Assembly: GCF_963921235.1 (NCBI RefSeq)
Contig: NC_086097.1
Coordinates: forward strand, 51,710,001-51,774,000
Length of the DNA: 64,000 nt
Source of the DNA: Mobula hypostoma
Lineage: Eukaryota
Direction of reading: 5' to 3'
Shown here: one piece after another, positions 6,870-24,748 of the stretch
Numbering within the stretch: position 1 is the stretch's first letter
Layout of the letters: each line of letters begins with the position of its first letter
Position numbers and translations under genes: made by a program
Notes under the pieces: generated by a model
What the model was told of the DNA's origin: nothing
Database searches by the model: none
What the model saw: only the letters and a program-made list of their open reading frames with translations

Positions 6870-7420
6870 CAGCATAGAAACGTGCCCGTCAAACCAACTT
6901 GCCCATGCTGACCAAATTGCCTACCTGAGCTAGTTCAACTTCCCTGTGTTTGGCCAATATTCCTCTATCCATGTACCTATGTAAATGTCTTTTAAATGTT
7001 GTAATTGTAACCACCTCTACCAGTTCTCCTGGCAGCTCATTCAATATACACACCACTCACTATGCGGAAAAAGTTGCTCCCTAAGAACCATTTAAATCTT
7101 TCCCCTCTCACTTTAAATGTATTTAGACTCCCTTACCCTGGGAAAAGGACTGTGACCATTCACTTTACCTATTCCCATCATGATTTTATATACAAGGTCA
7201 CCCCTCTAGAAGGAAAACAGTCCCAACCATCCAGTTTCTCTTTATACCTCAACCTTTACAGTCTGAGTAACACCCTTGCTAATCTTTACTCACCCTTTCC
7301 AGTTTCACGACATCCTTCCTATAGCTGGCTGATCATAACTGCACACAACAAGTGCAGTCTCAGTCTCACCAACATCTTGTATAGCTTTAACATGATATCC
7401 TAACTCTTAAAATCATTGCC
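6870..7420 (-). mobile_element. CR1-type LINE 3' end, degraded
   Basis: Reverse-complement similarity to the CR1 3' end at 13261-13838, including the tail at CATAGAAAC. Confidence 0.75.
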
Positions 7421-9270: not shown

Positions 9271-10789
9271 AATCTTTATGTAAACTGAATGAGTGAAAAA
9301 ACATGATAAGTATAATTGAATAGAAGTGCTTTGTAAGGAGCTCTGAAGTAAAATGAAGCAGTATCAGAAAGCCCGGCAAAGGTCTCACGTGGGCGGGCCA
9401 GCCTTGACACTTCTCCTTGGGAAATATTCCTTATGTTGGACAGTTCTCCGAGACAATGCCACCATCAGAACTCCGAGGAGTTATGACATGGACCTTACAG
9501 CGACCTCTAGTGACTTAGGTGAGAATGACAGTGTTGAAGCAATGGGCTTGGCAACCATGTCACTGCTTGCCCCAATAAAGACCAAGGACGTGAAGACAAG
9601 CAGGACTGAAGATAGGGCCTATGAATGGAGACATTTGGTTTTTCATCAACTGCCTGAACCAGAAAAGATTGATAAATGGTCCAAAGAAATTCCACATCTT
9701 AAAAAACGAAGCTTAAAAAGCTGAGCTTCAATGTATTAGTAACATATACAAATAGCTCCCATAAGATTGCATCTAAACTTTGGCTACTATGTTATCTTCT
9801 CAGCAAATCAGACATTTGACTCATAGAGTTGATGACAACATGGGAGATGGTAAGCAAAATATATTAGGGGGGTGGGATGCTATTATAAGAGCTGGTTGGA
9901 AGAAAAGGCCCCAGTGCAGACTGATTGAAGGAAAGCAGTTGACTGCAAGCAAAACGCTTCGGGGGATGTTTCTGAATATGAGGAACACTGCAGGACAGCA
10001 CGGTTAAGTTATTCAGGAGTTCCAGGAATAAATGAAAATGGCATAAAGGACTCTACATATGGTTCCTAGTAATCAACTTTTATGGATGGGTTGAAACCAG
10101 ATGCTGCCAAAATGGTGAAGCTAATAAAACTAAGCTGGAATGAAGCTGGTGTTCCATATAGTAAGCTAGTGCAAGCCGCCAAACAAGTGGAATGAGATAT
10201 CAAAATCAGAATAGGATCATTACAGGTGGGTCAGTTACCTGTTGATCGACAGCCACTGATCATGGGTCAGCATGCACTGCTTGCTAGTCAACGGTCATAG
10301 CTGTTGCAGGTGTGTCAACAGGCGAAACTCGTGAACCAACAGAAAAGCAGGACTGGAATTCACAGTGTGCACCACAGCAATCCCAGTCTGAGCCACACCT
10401 CCGACGCCAATCCCTAAAACAAAATATCACTTTTGTGGTAAAAGACACTGGGCGAGAAGTTGTTGGCATAGGAAACAAAATGGGCAACAGAGACAAACCC
10501 AACAACAAATTCATTCCCCTGCCTTGCAAATGTTGAGAGATCCTGATCTGCTGTCACAGTTTCAATGAGCAATTTTGGATGAAATGGACATATTGTTGAA
10601 TTCAAAAATGACTATTGCTTCCCTGCAGCCCTTGCTCGCCTTATTAGAGCAAAAATCAGGCAGCTTGTATGTTAACTTACTGCTTAGGAATGAACGTGCT
10701 GAATTTTTATTGGTTTAGGATGACTGTGCCAAGATAATAACAGGCCATGAAGATGCAAATTATTACAAAGAAACACCTCTATTGAACAC

Positions 10790-11215
10790 AGATCAGATTT
10801 TGTACAGATGACTCCTCAATGACTGAGAGAGGAATTTGAATGGCTGGATGTGCTGTTGGTTCTGAAACTGAGGTGCTGGTGTCAGAGATCGTGGCTCATC
10901 ATACCTTAATGCAATAGGTAGAGCTGAAATCCCTGACGGAAGGAAGATCAGCTAATATCTGCACTGATTCTCCATATGCTTTCAGATTTGCCCTTGACCT
11001 GGAAGCTTATGGAGACAAAGGAGATTTCTTACATCTGTAGAAACCCCAATCAAGAATGGCCAGCTAGTACAGGAGCTCATGAATGTTACACAATTGCTGT
11101 CAAAAGTAGTTATATTGAAATGTAAAATCCACTTAAAAATGACTATAATAGAAAGTGGTGGAAATGCATTCAAACACGATATTGCAAAAAAGACAGCACA
11201 GGAAGGGATAAAAGA
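10790..11215 (+). pseudogene. Retroviral RNase H remnant
   Basis: TDDSS...VELKSL...ANICTDSPYAF...WRQRRFLTSVETPIKNG...VVILKCKIH...GNAFKHDIAKKTA matches the gamma/epsilon-retroviral RNase H motif order. Stops and frameshifts present. Confidence 0.8.
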
Positions 11216-11609
11216 AATGAAAGAAGTACCAGAAGTGCAGAAGGTCAAAGAATTAAAAGTAGTATAGAGAACACATAAAGTGAACTTGACATCTAAAGTT
11301 ATGAAAATGAAGTTGAAATCTGGAAGTTTGGTTGATTGCCGAACTTTCAAAATGTTTGCAGATGTTTTGGCTTCAATCAAGAAGCCATCATCAGTGCGCA
11401 GTTGAGGGTGTTGTCTCCTCAGAATGCTGGTTTATATACTCCTCCGGGGTCTGATTGGATATTGATTCGACATCGTGAACTGGTTGGCTGGTTCAAAACA
11501 CTGAACAGTTTAGCAGTAGAAGGTTCTGATTGGCCAGATTTGAGGGAGGTCCGTTGGAAATGTTTGCTTTGATGTCCGGGTCTGTATCACAGATCAACAT
11601 ACAAGATAT

Positions 11610-13095
11610 TTGAGAGATGCAAGCTCAATGGTCGAACCAAGAAAACTGGCTCTGGATGAAGAATGGTGGAAGTTTAACAGTGATGGGGTTTGGAGATATG
11701 GTACTAGTCACAGACTAGTAGCTCCAACTACGTTGCTTCCTCATCTGGCACAGCTGATATATTGGAGTGGAAAAGATGATCCACAGATTCTCCCATTGGT
11801 GGTGGAATCTCATGTTCAGAGCATAGGCTCAACAAACATCTGGAAGATGCATGACAGGGCAGAAAACAAATCCTAGGGCATCAGACAAGCTACCACAGTT
11901 AAGTGCTCCTGCCCCACTTGGTCCATTTTTAGATCTACTTCATTTCTTTACCAAAGTGTCAAGGATACTCAGATATACTGGTAATAGTGGAAATGTTTTC
12001 AAGATTGACGCAAGCTATTCCAGCAAGGAAAGCCACTGCCACACACACAGCAAAAATTTTAATCAAGGCCTATATTCCTAGATGGGGATTGCCCTGTCAC
12101 ATTGCCTCTGACCAAGTAACCCATTTCAATTCTACTTCCCATTCCCATTCCGACATATCAGTCCATGGTCTCCTCTACTGCTGCAATGAGACTGAACTAA
12201 GGTTGGAGGAGTAACACCTTATATTCCAAATGAATGTTACTTTCTTGAACATCTGGTAATTGCCCCCAACACACCATTCCCCATTCCTGTTTCCCTTTCT
12301 CACCTTACCTCCTTATCTGTCCATCACCTTGCCCCAGTGCTCCTCCCCCTTCCCTTCCTTCCATGGTCTTCTCTTCTCTCCTGTCAGATTCCCCCTTCTC
12401 CAGCCCTTTATCTCTTTCACCAATCAACTTTCCAGCTCTACTTCATCCCCTCTCACCTACCACCTTGTAGTTCTTCCTCCCTTCCCCCACCTTCTTACTC
12501 TAATTTCTCCTCTCCCTTTCCAGTCTTGATGGGGAGTCTCAGCCAGAAATGTCTACTGTTAACTTTTTTCCACAGATGCTGCCTGACCTGCTGAGTTCTC
12601 CCAGCATTTTGTGCGTGCTGCTTTGGATTTCCAGCATCTGCAGATTTTATCTTGTTTGTGACACATTTCACCAGGAGTGTCAGAAATGACGTTTTCTGGT
12701 GAACACTGAATGACTTTTTATTGTGCACATCACCAGGTTCATCAGTACAAGTTGAATGAATGAATGGAATCCTCAAACAACAACTCATTAAGTATCATGA
12801 AGAAGGCGTACCACAGCTTACGGTTCTTCCTATGGTCTTATATATCATTAGTGCAACCCCACACAAGAAAACTAAATTAAGTCTATTTGAGGTGGAAACA
12901 GGGCGACCCAAGTCATTGCTTGTTCTCAGAGAGGCTGATATACATATTATGGCACTTGGCATAGTTAACTATTGTGTGAAATTAACCCATGCTGTACAGT
13001 CTGCCTGCCACAGATTTCTATCTCTTGGTGATCCAACAGAAGGAGGACACAGCCTGATCCCTGGTGAGTGGGTCCTGATTAAGGCATTGAGGTAA
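11610..13095 (+). pseudogene. Retroviral integrase remnant split by an insertion
   Basis: PLGPF, ILVIVEMFSRLTQAIPARKATA, IPRWGLPCHIASDQ; after the insert, MNGILKQQL...SATPHKKTKLSLFEVETGRP...IPGEWVLIK. Confidence 0.85.
12115..12660 (+). mobile_element. Penelope-like element 3' fragment (GIY-YIG endonuclease C-terminus plus pyrimidine-rich UTR)
   Basis: HFNSTSHSHSDISVHGLLYCCNETELRLEE*HLIF resembles the Penelope endonuclease end, followed by a CT-rich tract. It interrupts the integrase between SDQ and THFT. Confidence 0.7.
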
Positions 13096-13260
13096 ATGTG
13101 TTAGCAACCTCTGACCTAGTGTCTATGCTGCTGGACTACAGTGAGCAAATCACTAACCAGCCAGAAGACCTTGAACAGAGTCGATAATTACTGGACATTA
13201 TGAAGTTTAATCTAATATTATTTGTTGTTGTTATATATTAACTAATTTTTCCCACTCACA

Positions 13261-13838
13261 ATGTATAAGGCATTGGTGAGGCCGAATCTGGAGTATTGTG
13301 TGCAGTTTTGGTCACCAAATTACAGGAAGGATATAAATAAGGTTGAAAGAGTGCAGAGAAGGTTTACAAGGATGTTGCTGGGACTTGAGAAACTCAGTTA
13401 CAGAGAAAGGTTGAATAGGTGAGGACTTTATTCCCTGGAGCGTAGAAGAATGAGGGGAGATTTGATAGAGGTATATAAAATTATGATGGGTATAGACAGA
13501 GTGAAGGCAAACAGGCTTTTTCCACTGAGGCAAGGGGAGAAAAAAACCAGAGGACATGGGTTAAGGGTGAGGGGGGAAAAGTTTAAAGGGAACATTAGGG
13601 GGGGCTTCTTCACACAGAGAGTGGTGGGAGTATGGAATGAGCTGCCAGACGAGGTGGTAAATGCGGGTTCTTTTTTAACATTTAAGAATAAATTGGACAG
13701 ATACATGGATGGGAGGTGTATGGAGGGATATGGTCCGTGTGCAGGTCAGTGGGACTAGGCAGAAAATGGTTCGGCACAGCCAAGAAGGGCCAAGGGCCTG
13801 TTTCTGTGCTGTAGTTTCCATGGTTTCTATGGTTTCTA
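13261..13838 (+). mobile_element. 5'-truncated CR1-type LINE, relatively intact
   Basis: ORF2 C-terminus MRGDLIEVYKIM...TRGHGLRV...FFTQRVVGVWNELP and a (GTTTCTATG)-like tandem tail at 13814-13838. Confidence 0.95.
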
Positions 13839-16400: not shown

Positions 16401-18312
16401 TGGTCCTGGGCTCACCCACTATAGGAAACATCCTCTCCACATCTACACTATTCTGATCTTTCAATATTCAATAGAATTCAATGAAATCCTCTCTCATTCT
16501 TCTAAACTCCAGCGAATGCAGGCCCAGAGCTATCAAATGATCCCCACACGTTAACCTTTTCATTCTCAGAATCATTCTCCTGAACCTGCTCTGAACACCC
16601 TCCAATGTCAGCACATTTTTTAGATAAAGGGGCCAAAACTACACACAATACTCCAAGTGCATCTGACTAATGTCTCAGCATTATATCCTTGCATTCATAT
16701 TATCCTCGAATGCTAACACTGCATTTGCCTTCCTTACCGCCAACTCAGCCTGAAGTTAACCTTTAGGGAATCCTGCATGAGGACTCCAAAGTCCTGTCAT
16801 ATCACTGATTTTTAAAATTTTCTCCCCATTTAGAAAATAGTCTATGCCTTTATTCCTTCTACCAAAGTGCATGAGCATATACTGTACTTTCCTATACTAT
16901 ATCGATGGGCCAAATGGCTGACTTCTGCTCCTTTGTCTTATGGTCTTATATTCCATCTGCCACTTCTTTGTCCATTCTCCTAATTTGTCTAAAACCTTTG
17001 GCAGATTCCCCTTTTCCTCAACATAACCTGTCTCTCCACTATCTTCATATTGTTTGCAAACATGGCTACAAAGCCATCAATTCTGGCATCCAAATCATTG
17101 ACACACAATGTGAAAAGAAGTGGGCCCACACTGACTACTGAGGAGCATCAGCAGCCAACCAGAAAAGGTCCCCTTTATTCCCAGTCTTTTTGTCCTGCCA
17201 GCAGGCAATCTTCTATCTATGCTAATATCTTTCCTGTAATACTGGTGTGCTCTTATCTTATAAAGCAGCTTCATGTGCAACAGTCTGTCAAATACCTTCT
17301 GAAAATCCAGGCAAGCAACATCCACTTGACTCTCCTTTGTCTATCAAATGGTAGGGCACCGAAGAGTGTGGTAGAACAAAGGGATCTGGAAACAGATCCA
17401 TAATTCCTTGCAAGCGATACACAGGTAGATAAGACACTGAAAAGAGCTTTCATGCATTGGTTTTCATAAATCAGAGCACTGAGTACAAGAGTTGGGATGT
17501 TATATGAGATGGTGATGAAGCAAAACTTGAAGTATTCTATGCAGTTCTGGTGACCTAGCTGCAGGAAAAATATCAATAAGATTGAAAAAGTGCAGAGAAA
17601 GCTTACAAGGATGTTGCTGGGATTTGAGGACCTGAGTAAAAGGGAACGGTTGAATAGGTTAAGCTTTTTTTCCCAGGAGTGCAAGAGAATAGGAGAGATT
17701 TGATAGAGGTATACAAAATTATGAGAGGAAAATAGGGTAAACAGATGTATGGTTTTTTCACCAAGGTGGGGTGAGACGAGAACAAGAGATTGTAGTTTAA
17801 GGGTGAAAGGTGCAATATTTAAAGGGAACATGAGGGGGAGTTTCTTCTTTTAGCGGGTGATGCAAGTTTGGAATGAGCTGGAAGCGGAAGTGGTGGTTGT
17901 GGTTTCAAATGCAATATTGAAGAGAAGTTTGCATAAGTACATGGGATAGGAGGGGTATGGAGGACTATGGTTCAAATGCGAGTCACTGAACTAAATAGAA
18001 TAGCAGTTCAGTGTGGACTGGTTAGGCTGCTTGGCCTGTTTTTGTGTTGTAGTACTCAATGACTCTAGCCTTTTAACTCCAGAATCAGGTTTAATATCAC
18101 TGGCACATGTCATGAAATTGTTGTTTAGTTGCAGCAGTACTACAGGTGGTGGTTTGGGTGATACATAATAATAAAAACTATGATTTACAATAAGAATTGA
18201 ATTGACCTTATTTCTCACAAACTTCACATACATGAAGAGTAATAATCTTTACATTACGTCTCTGTCTGAATGTGCAATGTGCAATTTATAGCAATTTGTA
18301 ATAAATGGTATG

Positions 18313-18882
18313 TGTTAGAGTGAGTTTTTTTGGGTAGATGATTTGTTTACATTTAAATGACTTTGTCCACCAGATTTCTGTTTTAACTATTTGACAAAGG
18401 ACTGTGGATTGAGTCCACCACAATGGGCTTCCTAAAAGGTGTAAATACCAGATGCTTCTGGCGCCATAGTTTGGCCTAATGCTGTAGTTTTGAAGATAGT
18501 GTTATCTGTACATTATAATTATTAATTGTCTTCTATGTTAGCACGGGAAATGCCAAATAAATGTTTCGCAGACTTAACTTGCATTCCTAAAGGCTGTGGA
18601 TACCAACCCGGACATGTTGGCGTCGGAAGGAAAGGATGGTGTGATATTTTGTATGTAGCTTCAATAGGAAGCATTGTCTATGCATTGTCTATAACTTTTT
18701 AAGTAGCGATTGCCTTTGTGTTTAGCATATAAATATCGAGCCCACGTTGAGCTAGCAGACCTTTCTGCGGAAAGCGTCTCCATCCGTAAGATGCCTACTG
18801 TACCTTGTTGTGTGGAATAAAGAAGCTGCTTTGTATCTACCAGTAACTCTGTCTCTCCGGTAATTTCATCCACGTTACAACA
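18313..18882 (+). repeat. 5' LTR (570 bp)
   Basis: TGTTAGAG...TACAACA; TATAAA at 18728-18733, AATAAA at 18816-18821; direct repeat of 22999-23568. Confidence 0.97.
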
Positions 18883-18884
18883 TT

Positions 18885-18902
18885 TGGTGTCAGGAGTGGG
18901 AT
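18885..18902 (+). promoter_or_regulatory. Primer-binding site complementary to the tRNA-Leu(CAG) 3' end
   Basis: TGGTGTCAGGAGTGGGAT, separated from the LTR end by 2 nt, is the reverse complement of ATCCCACTCCTGACA-CCA. Confidence 0.9.
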
Positions 18903-19063
18903 ATCTTCGTGACCTGTCATGTGGCCAGCGTTCCTAAGCAGTCTTAAGTTGGTGAGTATTTTTCTAAAGTAACGTTCACACTTGGATCTGTTCGGTCGGT
19001 GGACACATGGGAACACGAGGTATCACGAACGTGGAGAGCTGAACTGGTAGATATAAAAGTAAT

Positions 19064-20317
19064 GTGTGCGTGTGCATGTGTGCTTATGTAAGTGAGGAAT
19101 CTTTGCATGTTGACTTGGTTAACTTGGAGGCACCAGTTGCAAAAGGTGGTAACCAACGGTACGGTTCGAGACGTTCGAGACGCCAGAGTAGGGGCGTGTA
19201 TACTCGTTCGGGGAGCTGCATTTTAGTGTATGCGTGTGCAAGTGTGATGCAAGGGAATACAGTAGGCATCATGAGTTCAGGTACTCAAAAGTGGCAGATT
19301 GTGGAATACATACTCTGCGGTTTTAAGTATGTACTGTTTAACTGCTACCCGTCTATGATATTTTGCATAGTGTGGGAATTAGTGTGGGGATATCTCAGGG
19401 AGAGGTTTTACCCAGAGAGATTGATCAGAATGGCACCTATTGAAGTCAGGCAACGTCAGGTTCAGAACCCTGATGATCTGAGCCAGCCCTTGACCTTGAT
19501 TACGACTATTCATAAGCCCTTCACCCCTGGGGAGAAACAGAGCATTTTGTCCGAGTTGCCCTCACTTAAAGTCGCCTGTGGGAATTCAGAATTCTGGTGC
19601 AAACTCGAGGAAATGGTTGAAATTCACCAGATGCACCCTAAAGATATACATGTGTTAGTGAAAGCAAAGTGCCTGAGGAATATGTGGGACAGGATGGCCC
19701 AGGGGGTGCGGGATGGTACATGGACAACTACCGGGAGCGCCAGTAATGAAGAAAGACATGGCTCTTTTAAAGGAGAAGTGAGGCAGTGCCTGGGGGGAGG
19801 CGAGAGTAGCTGGGGAACGATAGTGGCAGTGATTCAAAAAGCTGACGAGACAGCCATGGATTATGCAGAGCATAAACACCAAGCATATGAGGAGTATTTA
19901 GGATTGGATAATCCAGGGAGGGATGACCCAGTCTTCCTAAAAATGCTGAAGGAAGGCCTGAGCTCAGCCCACCAAGAAGTTTTAGATTTAGGCATAACAG
20001 TAGGGTCTGACTACTCTGCGATAGTTTCGTGGGCCAGTGAGATAGACCAAAGAAAAGGCAAGAGAAATTGTAAAGTGGGTATAATGGATGCAGGTGCTGT
20101 GATGTCCTGGAGGGCTTGTTTTGCTTGCCAGCAGCCAGGGCACATAGCAAAGGACAGCTGGACCTGGCATAACACAGTGAAGGAGTTGATATGCTACAGC
20201 TGTGGCCTATCGGGACATAGCCGGAGACAGTGTTCCAAAAGGGTGGGGGGAAACCCAGGCGAAGGAGACGGCAGACACCCAGTCACTCACCCCATCAGCA
20301 GCCAGTCTGACTGTTGA
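19064..20317 (+). CDS. gag: Gag-like ORF (capsid plus nucleocapsid zinc knuckles); true start uncertain, possibly MAPIEV at ~19430
   Basis: Open 417-aa frame; QKADETAMDY (major-homology-region-like), CFACQQPGHIAKDS (last Cys lost) and CYSCGLSGHSRRQC knuckles. Confidence 0.85.
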   Translation: MCVCMCAYVSEESLHVDLVNLEAPVAKGGNQRYGSRRSRRQSRGVYTRSGSCILVYACASVMQGNTVGIMSSGTQKWQIVEYILCGFKYVLFNCYPSMIFCIVWELVWGYLRERFYPERLIRMAPIEVRQRQVQNPDDLSQPLTLITTIHKPFTPGEKQSILSELPSLKVACGNSEFWCKLEEMVEIHQMHPKDIHVLVKAKCLRNMWDRMAQGVRDGTWTTTGSASNEERHGSFKGEVRQCLGGGESSWGTIVAVIQKADETAMDYAEHKHQAYEEYLGLDNPGRDDPVFLKMLKEGLSSAHQEVLDLGITVGSDYSAIVSWASEIDQRKGKRNCKVGIMDAGAVMSWRACFACQQPGHIAKDSWTWHNTVKELICYSCGLSGHSRRQCSKRVGGNPGEGDGRHPVTHPISSQSDC

Positions 20318-22363
20318 TCACATCAAGGAGTTAGTTATGGCGCCTCTTAAGGCAGAAAAGGATGTGGCAGCGGGCTCCACTGCCAGCGCTGGTGACTCAC
20401 GGATCTTCACAACGGCATTGGCAGGGGGACGGCAATGCAATATGTTAGTGGACACAGGGGCATCTGTATCGATAACAGACTTACCCTTACCAACAACCGG
20501 ACAGGCCAGTTATATCAGGGGTGTAGGAGGGAAAACAGTAAAAGCAGAAAGAAGCGAGAAGCAAATACTAGAAATCGGGGGAGTGCAGCTTCCAGTGTAT
20601 TTCTGGGTATGTCCAAATAATGAGGACATGATCCTTGGAATAGACATCCTACGGGAAGCAGGAGCTGTTATAGATTCGGCAAAGGGAGAAATAATATGGA
20701 CGAGACAGGGGCAGCGAACGCTTACGACCAACAGAATACACAAGCAAGATTGTGGTCAAGTAAAGATAAACCCAGTTAAGATAGAGGAGGGTCTATTTCA
20801 ACCCCCTAAGCAGGACCCTACACAAAATGACACACTGACCACTGTTGAGGGTATAGCGAAGGAACAAAAACACCAGGGGATACTCAGAGAGACTGTGGCC
20901 ACTCCAGAACATAAAGTTTTCCCAGCTCCTCCAAGGGCAGAAGTTACTGTGAAGAAGGCAGCAGAGGAACAAGAGGCAATTGAAATTGCAAGTGTGCAGG
21001 AGGAAATGACAGAAGCCAGCTTAGTAAAATTATATGAAGAGGTAGAGGCAGAAGAGAAGGAAAAATGGAGGAGAAAAGGAGCAAAGGAGGAATCAGACGG
21101 GTGCTGGACACATGGGGAGGAAAGAGTCGTGATGGCCCCACCCTGCATTAGACAGATACTACTGAAGTTTTATCATGGGGCGATGCATCAGGGAAGGCGG
21201 AGCATGATCACAACCCTCTGGCAGGACTGGTGGTGGCCAGGGATGGGCGGGAATGTTGAGAAATTCTGCCACCGTTGTATCATTTGTGCCCAGCATAACC
21301 CTGGTAAGGGCAGAAAGCTACAGCTGGCAAATCAGCCTCGGCTGAGGGGACCCTGGGAAAACATCTAAATAGACTTCACAGGGCCCCTGCCAAAAAGCAG
21401 GGGGAAAAGCTACTATCTAGTAATTATGGATCACTTCACCTGGTGAGTGGAGGCTTTCCCAACAAGGGACTGCACCACCCGCACCGCTGCATGGATCCCA
21501 GTTCAGGAAATCCTCCCAAGGTGGGGAACCCCAGTCCAGGTGGATTCAGATCAGGGAGCACATTTCACAGGGAAAGTGATGAAGGAAATGTGCCGACTGC
21601 TAGGGATTCGACAACAGTTCCACGTACCCTACCAGCCCCAGAGTTCAGGAATGGTAGGAAGGATGAACTGAACAATCAAGAATGTGTTAGCCAAAGCTAT
21701 AGCTGAGACAGGAAAGACATGGGTGGATGTATTACCAGGAATCTTGATGAGATTGCGCGCAACCCCGAACCGCACTTTGGGTCTCAGCCCCTACGAATTA
21801 TTGATGGGCGAGCAATGCGACTCTCTTATGGGGTAATTACGGGTTGCGGGGAGCCTGGGGCTTACAGGGACAGAATGACCCAATATGTGAAAGACCTTTG
21901 TAACCAACTTAAAGTATTAAAGGACTGAGTGAAGCAACAACAGCGAATCACTGATCAGAAAGAGCCAGAGGGAAAGGGGATAGTCCTTCCACAGTCCGGT
22001 GACCAAGTTATGGTGAGGGTGCTGCCAGAAAGGCCAGGGTTTGCCCCCAGGTGGATAGGACCACAGACAGTACACTTAACCAATGATACGTGTGTCTGTG
22101 TACAGACTCGGCGAGGCAGCCTGTGGAAACACTGGACCCAGGTTAAAGCATACAACTCACCCTCTTGTTGCTCCCACAGAAGGAGTGGGGAACCAAGTGT
22201 ACCCAGTAACCATGTAATTACAGAGAACCTAAGAGAGGAACACCAGCTGACCATGGCAGACCTGACCACAGCTGATGAAAACATACCCAGAGAAAACACA
22301 AAGGCAGAAAACGCTGACAACGTGGCAGAAGACACTGAGAACGTGTTGGAAAACCATGAATAG
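20202..22363 (+). pseudogene. pol: Internally deleted pol: aspartic protease fused to integrase, with stops and a frameshift in integrase
   Basis: LVDTGAS and ILGIDIL (protease); YHGAMH...CHRCIIC (HHCC); IDFTGP, DSDQGAHF and PQSSGMVGRMN (core; catalytic E appears as G); PRWIGP...WKHWTQVK (C-terminal domain). No YxDD motif. Confidence 0.9.
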
Positions 22364-22977
22364 CCTGCTAAAGTGTGATGATGATGGTGCTCTGTAAAGA
22401 AGGCTGGTTGCCGAAGGTAGAAGATTAATTTTATAGCATAGTATAGAAAATTATTTGGAAAATAGACGTGGAGAGATTTTTGAGTTAAGGCAGAGACGGC
22501 AAGTTCCACCACTTCGATGGCATTTCAGACTGCACACGGCATCTGAAAGCAGTCACCCCGAGTCTGAGGAGCTGAGCCCTTTTCAGCAGTTGAGCCAGTG
22601 ATCAACGGAACAGTTCGGAAGGGGGTGCCACCGGGGAGAGGTCCTTGCAGACATTTACGTAGAGGCCACCCCAACCCCTTCCTGTACATCGATGAGAGAG
22701 CTTGTGGGTGCTCCTGGAAGGAGAGTTTCAGCGACCAGAGGATAAAGGGCAGAAGACAAAGGAATGTGATTAAGATGCAGTCAGCCTGCAGGCACATGAA
22801 AGGAGCTGCATTCCTAAAGACTTGGAACAGCCTCTCCGCTTAACATTTGGTAGGTAATGCTAGGATAGATATCGAGGTACATAACTGGGGGGGAATTTCG
22901 AGACAGGGCATTTTGCGGCCCTGTTTGAGCAGATCCTCGTAGGTTGGCCTTTCCTAATACAAATATAATTTTTGTCC

Positions 22978-22998
22978 AGGAAGGCCAAGAGGATGGAC
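22978..22998 (+). promoter_or_regulatory. Polypurine tract
   Basis: AGGAAGGCCAAGAGGATGGAC immediately precedes the 3' LTR. Confidence 0.75.
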
Positions 22999-23568
22999 TG
23001 TTAGAGTAAGTTTATTTGGGTAGATGATTTGTTTACACTTAAATGACTTTGGCTACCAGACTTCTATTTTAACTGTTTGACAAAGGACTGTGGATTGAGT
23101 CCACCACAATGGGCTTCCTAAAAGGTGTAAATACCAGATGCTTTTGGCGCCGTAGTTTGGCCTAATGCTGTAGTTTTGAAGATAGTATTATCTATACATT
23201 ATAAATATTAATTGTCTTCTATGTTAGCATGGGAAATGCCAAATAAATGTTTCGCAGACTTAACTTACATTCCTAAAGGCTGTGGATACCAACCCGGACA
23301 TGTTGGCGTCGGAAGGAAAAGATGGTGTGATATTTTGTATATAGCTTCAATAGGAAGCATTGTCTATGCATTGTCTATAACTTTTTAAGCAGCGATTGCC
23401 TTTGTGTTTAGCATATAAATATCGAGCCCACGTTGAGCTGGCAGACCTTTCTGCGGAAAGCGTCTCCATCCGTAAGATGCCTGCTGTACCTTGTTGTGTG
23501 GAATAAAGAAGCTGCTTTGTATCTACCAGTAACTCTGTCTCTCCAGTAATTTCATCCACGCTACAACA
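22999..23568 (+). repeat. 3' LTR (570 bp)
   Basis: About 22 substitutions versus the 5' LTR by manual comparison, no indels noticed; AATAAA at 23502-23507. Confidence 0.97.
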
Positions 23569-24748
23569 GTATGTTCAACAGGACAGTAAATATAACATAG
23601 AAATACAATTGTATCAGCGTAAATTAATCAGTCTGATGGCCTGGTGGAAGAAGCTGTCCCGGAGTCTGTTGGTCCTGGCTTTTATGCTGCAGTACCATTT
23701 CCCAGATGGTAGCAGCTGGAACAGATTGTGGTTGGAGGGACTCAGATCCCCAGTTATCCGTCTGAGGTGAAAGAGGCGCTGTTGTGCTTTTTTCACCACA
23801 CAGCCAGTATGTACAGCCTGTGATGTGTAGGCCGAGGAACTTAAAGCTGTAAACCCTCTCAACCCCAGATCCATTGATGTCAATAGGGGTTAGCCTGTCT
23901 CCATTCCTCCTGTAATCCACAACCAGCTCCTTTGTTTTTGCGACATTGAGGGAGAGGTTGTTTTCTTGACACTACTGTGTCAGAGAGACGACATCTTCCC
24001 TGTAGACTGCTTTGTTATTACTTGAGGTAAGGCCAATCAATGGAGTATTGTCAGCAAATTTAATTAGCAGATTGGAGCTGTGGGTGGTTACACAGTCATG
24101 GGTATACAGAGAGTAAAAGAGGGGGCTTAGGACACAGCCCTGAGGGGCTCCTGTGTTGAGGGTTAGAGGGACAGAGGTGAGGGAGCCCCCTCTCACCACC
24201 TGCCGGTGATCTGTCAGTCCAGGATCCATATAAACAAATGGAAAATTAAATTAAACATGTAGTGCAAAAAGAGCAGAAAAAAGTACTGAGGAAATATTCA
24301 TGGTCATTGTCCATTCAGAAATTCAACGGTGGAGGGAAAACAGCCATTCCTGAAACATTGAGTGTGTGTCTCCAGGCTCCTGGACCTCCTCATTGACAGT
24401 AGCAGTGAGAAGAGGGCATGTCCTCTGTAATGGGGGTCCGTAACGATGGATGCTGCCATATTGTACCTTTTGAAGGTGCCCTGAATGCTGAGGAGGGTAG
24501 TGACCATGATGAAGCTGGCAGAATTTACAATTTTTTGCAGTTTGCAAGTGTCTTTGGTGACAAACCAATTCTCCTCAAACTCCAAATAAAATATAACCAC
24601 TGCTGTATCTTCTTTGTAATTGCATTGATATGTTGGGCCAAAGTAGTCCTCAATGAGGACTGATGTGTATTTCCTCAACTTCCCCTTACTGAAGACCACA
24701 ACTGATTCCTCAGAGTGCAAGGTGGTTGTTGCAACATCAGTCAGCCCA

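Follow-up and report, generated by a model that had tools for sequence, protein, structure and literature searches.

A devil ray endogenous retrovirus that has lost reverse transcriptase but kept integrase, and its likely copying by relatives

The window analyzed here, 64,000 nucleotides of Mobula hypostoma DNA (NCBI RefSeq assembly GCF_963921235.1, contig NC_086097.1, positions 51,710,001 to 51,774,000 of the forward strand), contains at positions 18313 to 23568 an envelope-less endogenous retrovirus copy, the interior of which comprises gag, protease, and integrase, without reverse transcriptase (RT) and RNase H. The copy is dead, as four stops and two frame breaks leave it encoding no working proteins. 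On the evidence of its cis-acting signals and of the uneven decay of its remaining pol sequence, we favor with modest confidence the reading that it likely represents a non-autonomous ray subfamily that relied on the RT of intact relatives for its copying but would still have made its own Gag, protease, and integrase.

The signals typical of an endogenous retrovirus, namely, two long terminal repeats (LTRs), a tRNA primer-binding site, a polypurine tract (PPT), and a target-site duplication, are all present in the element (Table 1), as the initial annotation of this DNA had claimed. The LTRs are 96% identical, with 22 mismatches over 570 positions (19 transitions and 3 transversions; Kimura two-parameter [K2P] distance, 0.040). 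The primer-binding site matches all 18 bases of the 3′ end of tRNA-Leu(CAG), the primer sequence of which is printed in the available text of PMC7229842. The same five bases flank the element on both sides, a match expected by chance about once in 1,000. Taken together, the LTRs, primer site, PPT, and target duplication indicate that the RT-less genome was itself reverse transcribed and integrated. This combination of absent RT and retained cis signals is also what characterizes non-autonomous LTR families in the relevant passages of PMC9744471.

Table 1. Features of the provirus and of its insertion site, in window coordinates
Feature	Position	Strand	Remarks
Target-site duplication, left copy	18308..18312	.	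5 bp
5′ LTR	18313..18882	+	570 bp; TG...CA ends
Primer-binding site	18885..18902	+	18/18 bases identical to the tRNA-Leu(CAG) 3′ end
gag open frame	19043..20317	+	Stop to stop; retrovirus-like capsid; two zinc knuckles, the first degenerate
Gag C-terminal tail	20250..20410	+	Read in the pol frame
Aspartic protease	20415..20700	+	Active-site motif at 20451
First in-frame gap	20718..20743	+	About 37 residues of the protease/RT boundary missing
N-terminal RT remnant	20742..20930	+	Decayed, open, in frame
Linker	20892..20966	+	25 residues in place of 548 to 571 residues (RT core, tether, RNase H) of related Pols
RNase H remnant	20935..21010	+	Last RNase H helix and RNase H/integrase boundary
Integrase	21010..22363	+	N-terminal extension, HHCC, core, C-terminal domain; interrupted by four stops and a frame break
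3′ region	22364..22977	+	About 610 bp; no recognizable env
PPT	22978..22997	+	17/20 purines; read from the sequence
3′ LTR	22999..23568	+	570 bp; TG...CA ends
Target-site duplication, right copy	23569..23573	.	5 bp; within a very high-copy host repeat

The pol open frame runs from stop to stop over positions 20190 to 21368 (392 amino acids) and gives Pfam matches to a protease and to an integrase zinc finger. Gag carries two zf-CCHC knuckles, and its look-alikes in the Atlas are Gag_p24/Gag_p30 clusters at 0.90 to 0.92, a lead toward a retroviral capsid; with the knuckles as nucleocapsid, the retroviral pairing of the two domains is found in this Gag, the capsid by look-alike clusters. No RT, RNase H, or env family was matched in the six frames of positions 18883 to 22998 with stops read as X, and, apart from one subthreshold chance match, the families retrieved by that scan were those of zinc knuckle, protease, and integrase. 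Searches by tblastn with three RT-tether-RNase H segments gave nothing below an E value of 1.5 inside the element. Aligned with full-length relatives, the frame matches the start of RT up to about position 20925 and resumes at the end of RNase H or the start of integrase. The initial annotation had described precisely this, a resemblance to the start of RT followed in one frame by the last RNase H helix, and had proposed that RT and RNase H were removed in frame between protease and integrase; the scan, the tblastn searches, and the alignment bear out both points. An RT elsewhere in the element, named there as the result that would overturn the proposal, was looked for by the six-frame profile scan and tblastn and not found.

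The main junction most likely lies near positions 20930 to 20935, because the similarity to the last RNase H helix sets in there and, in two organisms, the matching part of long contigs starts at exactly 20935, in line with the position of about 20935 first suggested. The other gap, of 37 residues, had been missed by the initial annotation; the motif lost with it is present in all seven aligned relatives. Both gaps preserve the reading frame. When the linker is read as a mosaic of short RT pieces, P values of 0.005 to 0.06 are obtained against two shark Pols and of 0.05 to 0.44 against an eel Pol (nine tests, uncorrected); that the linker consists of several RT pieces left by serial deletions is possible, at the borderline of significance. 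In relatives, a hydrophobic stretch ahead of integrase holds a likely cleavage site; the element retains this stretch but lacks the protease/RT boundary. Motif likeness suggests that cleavage may occur at the kept RNase H/integrase boundary.

The uneven decay of what remains of pol provides independent support for an RT-less lineage mobilized in trans. Where three relatives have the same residue, that residue is found in the RT remnant at 10 of 20 columns but in protease plus integrase at 108 of 124 (Fisher P = 0.0004). Measured against the two full-length Pols only, retention is 10 of 22 columns in the remnant and 133 of 177 in protease plus integrase (P = 0.006). Of these RT columns, other relatives, four in number, retain 20/22, 19/22, 16/21, and 14/22, and the integrase of the element is kept at 106 of 135 columns, on a par with its relatives (108, 98, and 88 of 138). 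Drift since insertion amounts to about 0.02 to 0.03 per site, as judged from LTR divergence and the four stops. Such drift is expected to remove one or two of 20 conserved residues (for 10 or more, P < 1e-5) and cannot explain the decay of the remnant, which implies a neutral divergence of about 0.22. P0185, a relative from which RT was deleted separately, serves as a control and retains 20 of the 22 RT columns, the pattern to be expected of a recent deletion. Because the decay exceeds post-insertion drift, RT likely died long before this insertion, with read-through to integrase kept, while the lineage went on being copied. At the implied divergence, the 75 codons of the remnant would stay free of stops with a probability of about 0.15. 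Both gaps would be in frame by chance in 1 case in 9, and the joint probability with the stop-free remnant is roughly 0.016. A drifted remnant without stops, between gaps that keep the frame, points to selection for translating integrase.

The integrase region of this copy carries stops at 21366, 21444, 21669, and 21926 and a frame break near 21805, and the third position of the D,D,E triad (21657) has no acidic residue. The second frame break lies near 20230 to 20250, where gag and pol are out of frame. A −1 slippery-like heptamer occurs near 20246, but a shift there would not reach the pol frame. Among the 40 variants listed, with 1,107 more beyond that list, 27 are coding and fall on codon positions 1, 2, and 3 in a ratio of 11/7/9, a spread that reflects neutral decay of this copy and is uninformative on the family. 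No env was matched by Pfam in the three frames of positions 22364 to 22998, and nothing below an E value of 0.068 was obtained against 30 loci; the region is too short for env. ARAGORN and Rfam returned nothing useful on the element.

Sequence words of the element are present in sequencing runs of eight organisms (A to H). Contigs were examined in 4 of 24 runs, three of DNA and one (X11) only guessed to be RNA; the runs of organisms D to H (shares of 0.17 to 0.23) lie outside this contig analysis. The family is high copy in three organisms. The contigs matching the element number 33,654, 32,384, 28,354, and 1,249 in the four runs, and all 30 bins are covered in each. The median depth of the internal bins is 554 to 716 times that of long low-copy contigs, and that of the bin with the remnant and junction is 213 to 336 times, ratios that do not represent copy numbers. 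A 490-base deletion inside integrase (21414 to 21905) was observed in a single contig from organism A and another from organism B (depths of 85 and 525), and further-reduced subfamilies without the integrase core may exist. The target of the provirus is a very high-copy host repeat (18100 to 18312 and 23569 to 23800), with empty-site joints in all four runs. Because both flanks are such repeat, orthology of the insertion is unreadable. The minus strand beyond 23600 resembles what we take to be the end of a non-LTR retrotransposon.

Several observations weigh against mobilization of an RT-less lineage in trans. The integrase of this copy is itself dead, and the decay test takes as its reference relatives of about 50% identity in place of the true parent. 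Ranked by depth among the 21 internal bins of each of the three DNA runs, the junction bin comes last in two runs and second to last in the third (0.30 to 0.52 of the median), and a mostly RT-bearing family would give such a thin bin likewise. In organisms A and C, the match of long contigs ends precisely at 20935, and one of these contigs, from organism C, continues upstream with 139 unmatched letters. A contig of organism A, from the run guessed to be RNA and 84% identical, does match across this position (20902 to 21166), but with only 33 bases to the left of it and 543 unmatched letters upstream. At 20705, a common other letter makes up 85 to 91% of the depth in the DNA runs, and the 191 DNA-run contigs that carry it match at most 39 bases on their shorter side, a pattern suggestive of a break at 20743 (or 20667) in other copies. 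Among the 32 contig pieces listed, none spans protease to integrase, with 97,419 pieces, 1,372 joints, and 6,527 loose ends lying beyond that list. Protein searches (1 and 21 matches among 7,999 candidates, 0 of 193, and the best 150 of 285) gave no helper Pol closer than 54%; they also gave no close RT-bearing partner and no second open reading frame (ORF) spanning the junction, a weak negative, as repeats are usually masked in annotation. In DNA collections, pattern searches gave 4 and 68 candidates, none of which was confirmed, and further searches gave distant elements that serve only as tree references.

Many copies thus likely differ at 20935 or 20743, possibly as RT-bearing helpers, and the simplest joint reading of the contigs is that RT-bearing or less-deleted members coexist with an RT-less subfamily of uncertain size. 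The suggestion of the initial annotation that this is an RT-less lineage mobilized in trans therefore stands in part: it gains from the uneven decay and from a remnant that is open and in frame, and it is narrowed in that RT-less copies probably account for only some of the family and that the protein searches turned up no close helper.

Two other histories share much of this evidence, and we regard both as unlikely. According to the first, the RT-less lineage spread via a helper that gives both RT and integrase, so that the integrase of the element is baggage, and recombination with co-packaged helper RNA refreshes both sides of the decayed island (about 20743 to 20935). The edges of the island do coincide with the positions where other copies stop matching, and integrase is also lost in known non-autonomous partners, as described in parts of the reports on the cereal families and Bik-1 discussed below. 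The mosaic reading of the short linker would fit as well where the two shark Pols are the reference, but it is not significant against the eel Pol. Integrase as baggage leaves the 75 stop-free drifted codons and both in-frame gaps unexplained, at the joint probability of about 0.016 given above. The second history supposes an RT-bearing family from which RT and RNase H were lost in a one-off or rare deletion, at the element's own reverse transcription or after insertion, and in frame by chance. It would account for the dip in junction depth in all three DNA runs and for contigs breaking off at 20935 and 20743. P0185 shows that RT can be deleted in frame in this lineage, and a second copy of the junction was not seen base by base among the contig pieces listed. 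However, a one-off deletion needs two chance in-frame gaps, one contig does match across 20935, and the selective decay of the RT remnant cannot be accommodated unless the unsampled parent RT was itself aberrant.

An assembly artefact, in which collapsed repeats were joined across RT, is very improbable. The element belongs to a high-copy family and lies beside a 39-kb satellite, and raw reads of this individual are outside the data used; still, the target duplication and LTR pair match, the two gaps are both in frame, and the decay of the remnant is a residue-level signal that a misjoin does not produce. Least credible of all is a Gmr1-type Gypsy element, the gene order of which places integrase before RT, with a native protease-integrase join and RT lost behind integrase: it would explain the proximity of protease and integrase within a single frame, but it is contradicted by the RT-start remnant that precedes integrase (E values of 1e-9 to 6e-15), by the closest relatives, in which integrase is preceded by RT, tether, and RNase H and which fall in the retroviral clade, and by the absence of RT behind integrase in the tblastn and six-frame searches.

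The best protein match of the element is Mobula hypostoma XP_062926799.1 (P0030), a member of the same family that is 81% identical in Gag and 88% in the Gag tail and protease. Unlike the element, P0030 has Gag and protease in one frame; its model ends inside the protease and is silent on the junction. The closest full-length Pols are those of a shark cluster (P0002/P0024/P0026, which holds Mustelus asterias XP_078069418.1) and of an eel cluster (P0003, which holds Anguilla anguilla). They share the domain order of the element, and both clusters carry the RT, tether, and RNase H that it lacks; against P0026, the element is 51% identical in protease and 65% in the integrase core. The cyprinid proteins P0185 and P0037 share this domain order too; P0185, which is of the same lineage, shows an in-frame RT deletion distinct from that of the element, and its RT remnant is conserved. 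P0185 is a Logan contig of 3,681 nucleotides with a 743-amino-acid protease-integrase ORF and other deletion endpoints, and its cluster holds Leuciscus and Pimephales proteins. In-frame RT loss may recur in this lineage. The RT-skipping P0034, P0041, and P0139 were not counted as deletions, since these NCBI proteins could be predicted genes with RT spliced out.

The classification of the element rests on quick trees of RT (63 of 88 rows, near-duplicates left out) and of integrase (67 of 128 rows). The RTs of P0002, P0003, and P0142 fall inside the retroviral clade (SH-aLRT of 99), a grouping that applies to the element by proxy, as it has no RT core. The dual RNase H is likewise found by proxy, since P0002 and P0003 carry PF17917/PF17919 together with PF00075 and the element keeps only the last helix. 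The integrase of the element groups with the same shark and eel proteins in the integrase tree. Among solved structures, the relatives' RT best matches MLV/XMRV (340 bits, versus 167 for Ty3 and 149 for foamy virus). Their RT lies in an unresolved basal fork with L008 (10,688 nucleotides), which we take to be a snakehead retrovirus (class III/clade Huo), and the two are grouped at 90 in the integrase tree. The tRNA-Leu primer and the 5-bp duplication are reminiscent of ERV-L. A 27-row clade of the RT tree (SH-aLRT of 98) holds reference loci that are presumably of gamma and epsilon type. A gamma/epsilon-like identity (class I; clades Jin and Mu in the available text of PMC6001957) was rejected, as the relatives fall outside this clade, their best structural match to MLV/XMRV notwithstanding. 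Lokiretroviruses are characterized, in the passages of PMC7947760 that define them, by an RT that is sister to all other retroviruses, an RNase H that groups with foamy viruses, and a paramyxovirus-F-like Env. The element has no env, the relatives' RNase H matches MLV/XMRV first, and the comparison included no lokiretrovirus reference; several relatives are labeled NYNRIN-like, a loose fit to the integrase link described in part of that paper. From these sequence comparisons, we class the element as a basal, envelope-less endogenous retrovirus, Retroviridae-like and not Gypsy.

If the RT-less subfamily was mobilized in trans, its cycle would begin with transcription from the 5′ LTR. The RNA, with its tRNA-Leu site, PPT, and LTRs, would be packaged in a particle that also holds helper Gag-Pol, and after priming by tRNA-Leu, the helper RT/RNase H would make the cDNA. 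The element's own Gag-protease-remnant-integrase protein would enter the same particle, and cleavage by its protease at the RNase H/integrase boundary, which is retained, would release integrase. What is left of the dead RT would serve as a spacer only, which must stay open for integrase to be translated, and integration would be carried out by the element's own integrase or by a mix of integrases. A fuller version, which we put forward only tentatively, is that this is a long-lived, multicopy devil ray subfamily that outsources reverse transcription alone. RT and RNase H would have been lost serially and in frame, the remnant turned into a spacer, and Gag, protease, and integrase held under purifying selection across several species.

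The mouse element ETn is not known to encode a protein of its own. Like the element proposed here, it is non-autonomous and uses the enzymes of a relative, MusD, via a tRNA primer site, but it relies on the whole MusD machinery (10.1101/2024.09.13.612906, in the available part). In fish, the zebrafish BHIKHARI (Bik-1), a relative of endogenous lokiretroviruses, is an RT-less family presumed to be complemented by a partner; unlike the element, it has only Gag, with a coiled coil and a glycine-rich patch instead of two zinc knuckles, and no pol (10.1101/2024.03.25.586437, in part). Semi-autonomous LTR families of the Triticeae include RLG_Sabrina_SA, RLG_WHAM (helper RLG_Wilma), and RLG_Quinta (helper RLG_Cereba), and Giselle is a further non-autonomous cereal family with a helper (available passages of PMC9744471, PMC11302176, and PMC5738225). 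As these passages describe them, the Triticeae families resemble the element in keeping LTRs, primer site, and Gag (and protease in Sabrina_SA), in having lost RT, and in replicating through a partner that shares the primer site. They differ in that integrase is also lost and helpers have been identified, and they are plant Gypsy elements, whereas the present element is retrovirus-like with integrase in frame.

Outside the provirus, the window holds a second, far more decayed endogenous retrovirus of another family on the plus strand (about 10400 to 13100), with a zinc-knuckle-like motif near 10420, RNase H at 10800 to 11200, and integrase pieces at 11600 to 12130 and 12660 to 13090; no protease or RT match was found between its knuckle and RNase H, and no LTR pair. 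Three old copies of one dispersed repeat, 69 to 73% alike, lie at 13289 to 13734, 17528 to 17971, and, inverted, 6967 to 7193. From 24748 to 63997, 39 kb up to the end of the window are taken up by a satellite with a strong strand skew, in which a 40-bp unit is repeated about 990 times (91% matches).

Non-autonomous LTR families with helpers are already well known, and they usually drop RT and integrase together; the loss of RT with integrase kept is what differs here and is probably new. Phrase searches of open-access text found no RT-less family that keeps integrase, Repbase and Dfam, which may already hold this family, being outside their scope, and none is described in the available portions of 10.1101/710657, PMC5210030, and PMC4715297. 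Should the junction prove unique to this locus, the element would be an ordinary deleted provirus. If RT alone was lost and integrase was selected, integrase either prefers its own genome or particle or gives what the helper cannot, the candidate benefits being recognition of its own LTR ends and its own choice of target, both testable on hundreds of natural copies. This would represent a division of labor inside mixed particles, not plain parasitism. RT-less elements escape RT-based surveys of endogenous retroviruses, so this basal retrovirus lineage may be undercounted in rays.

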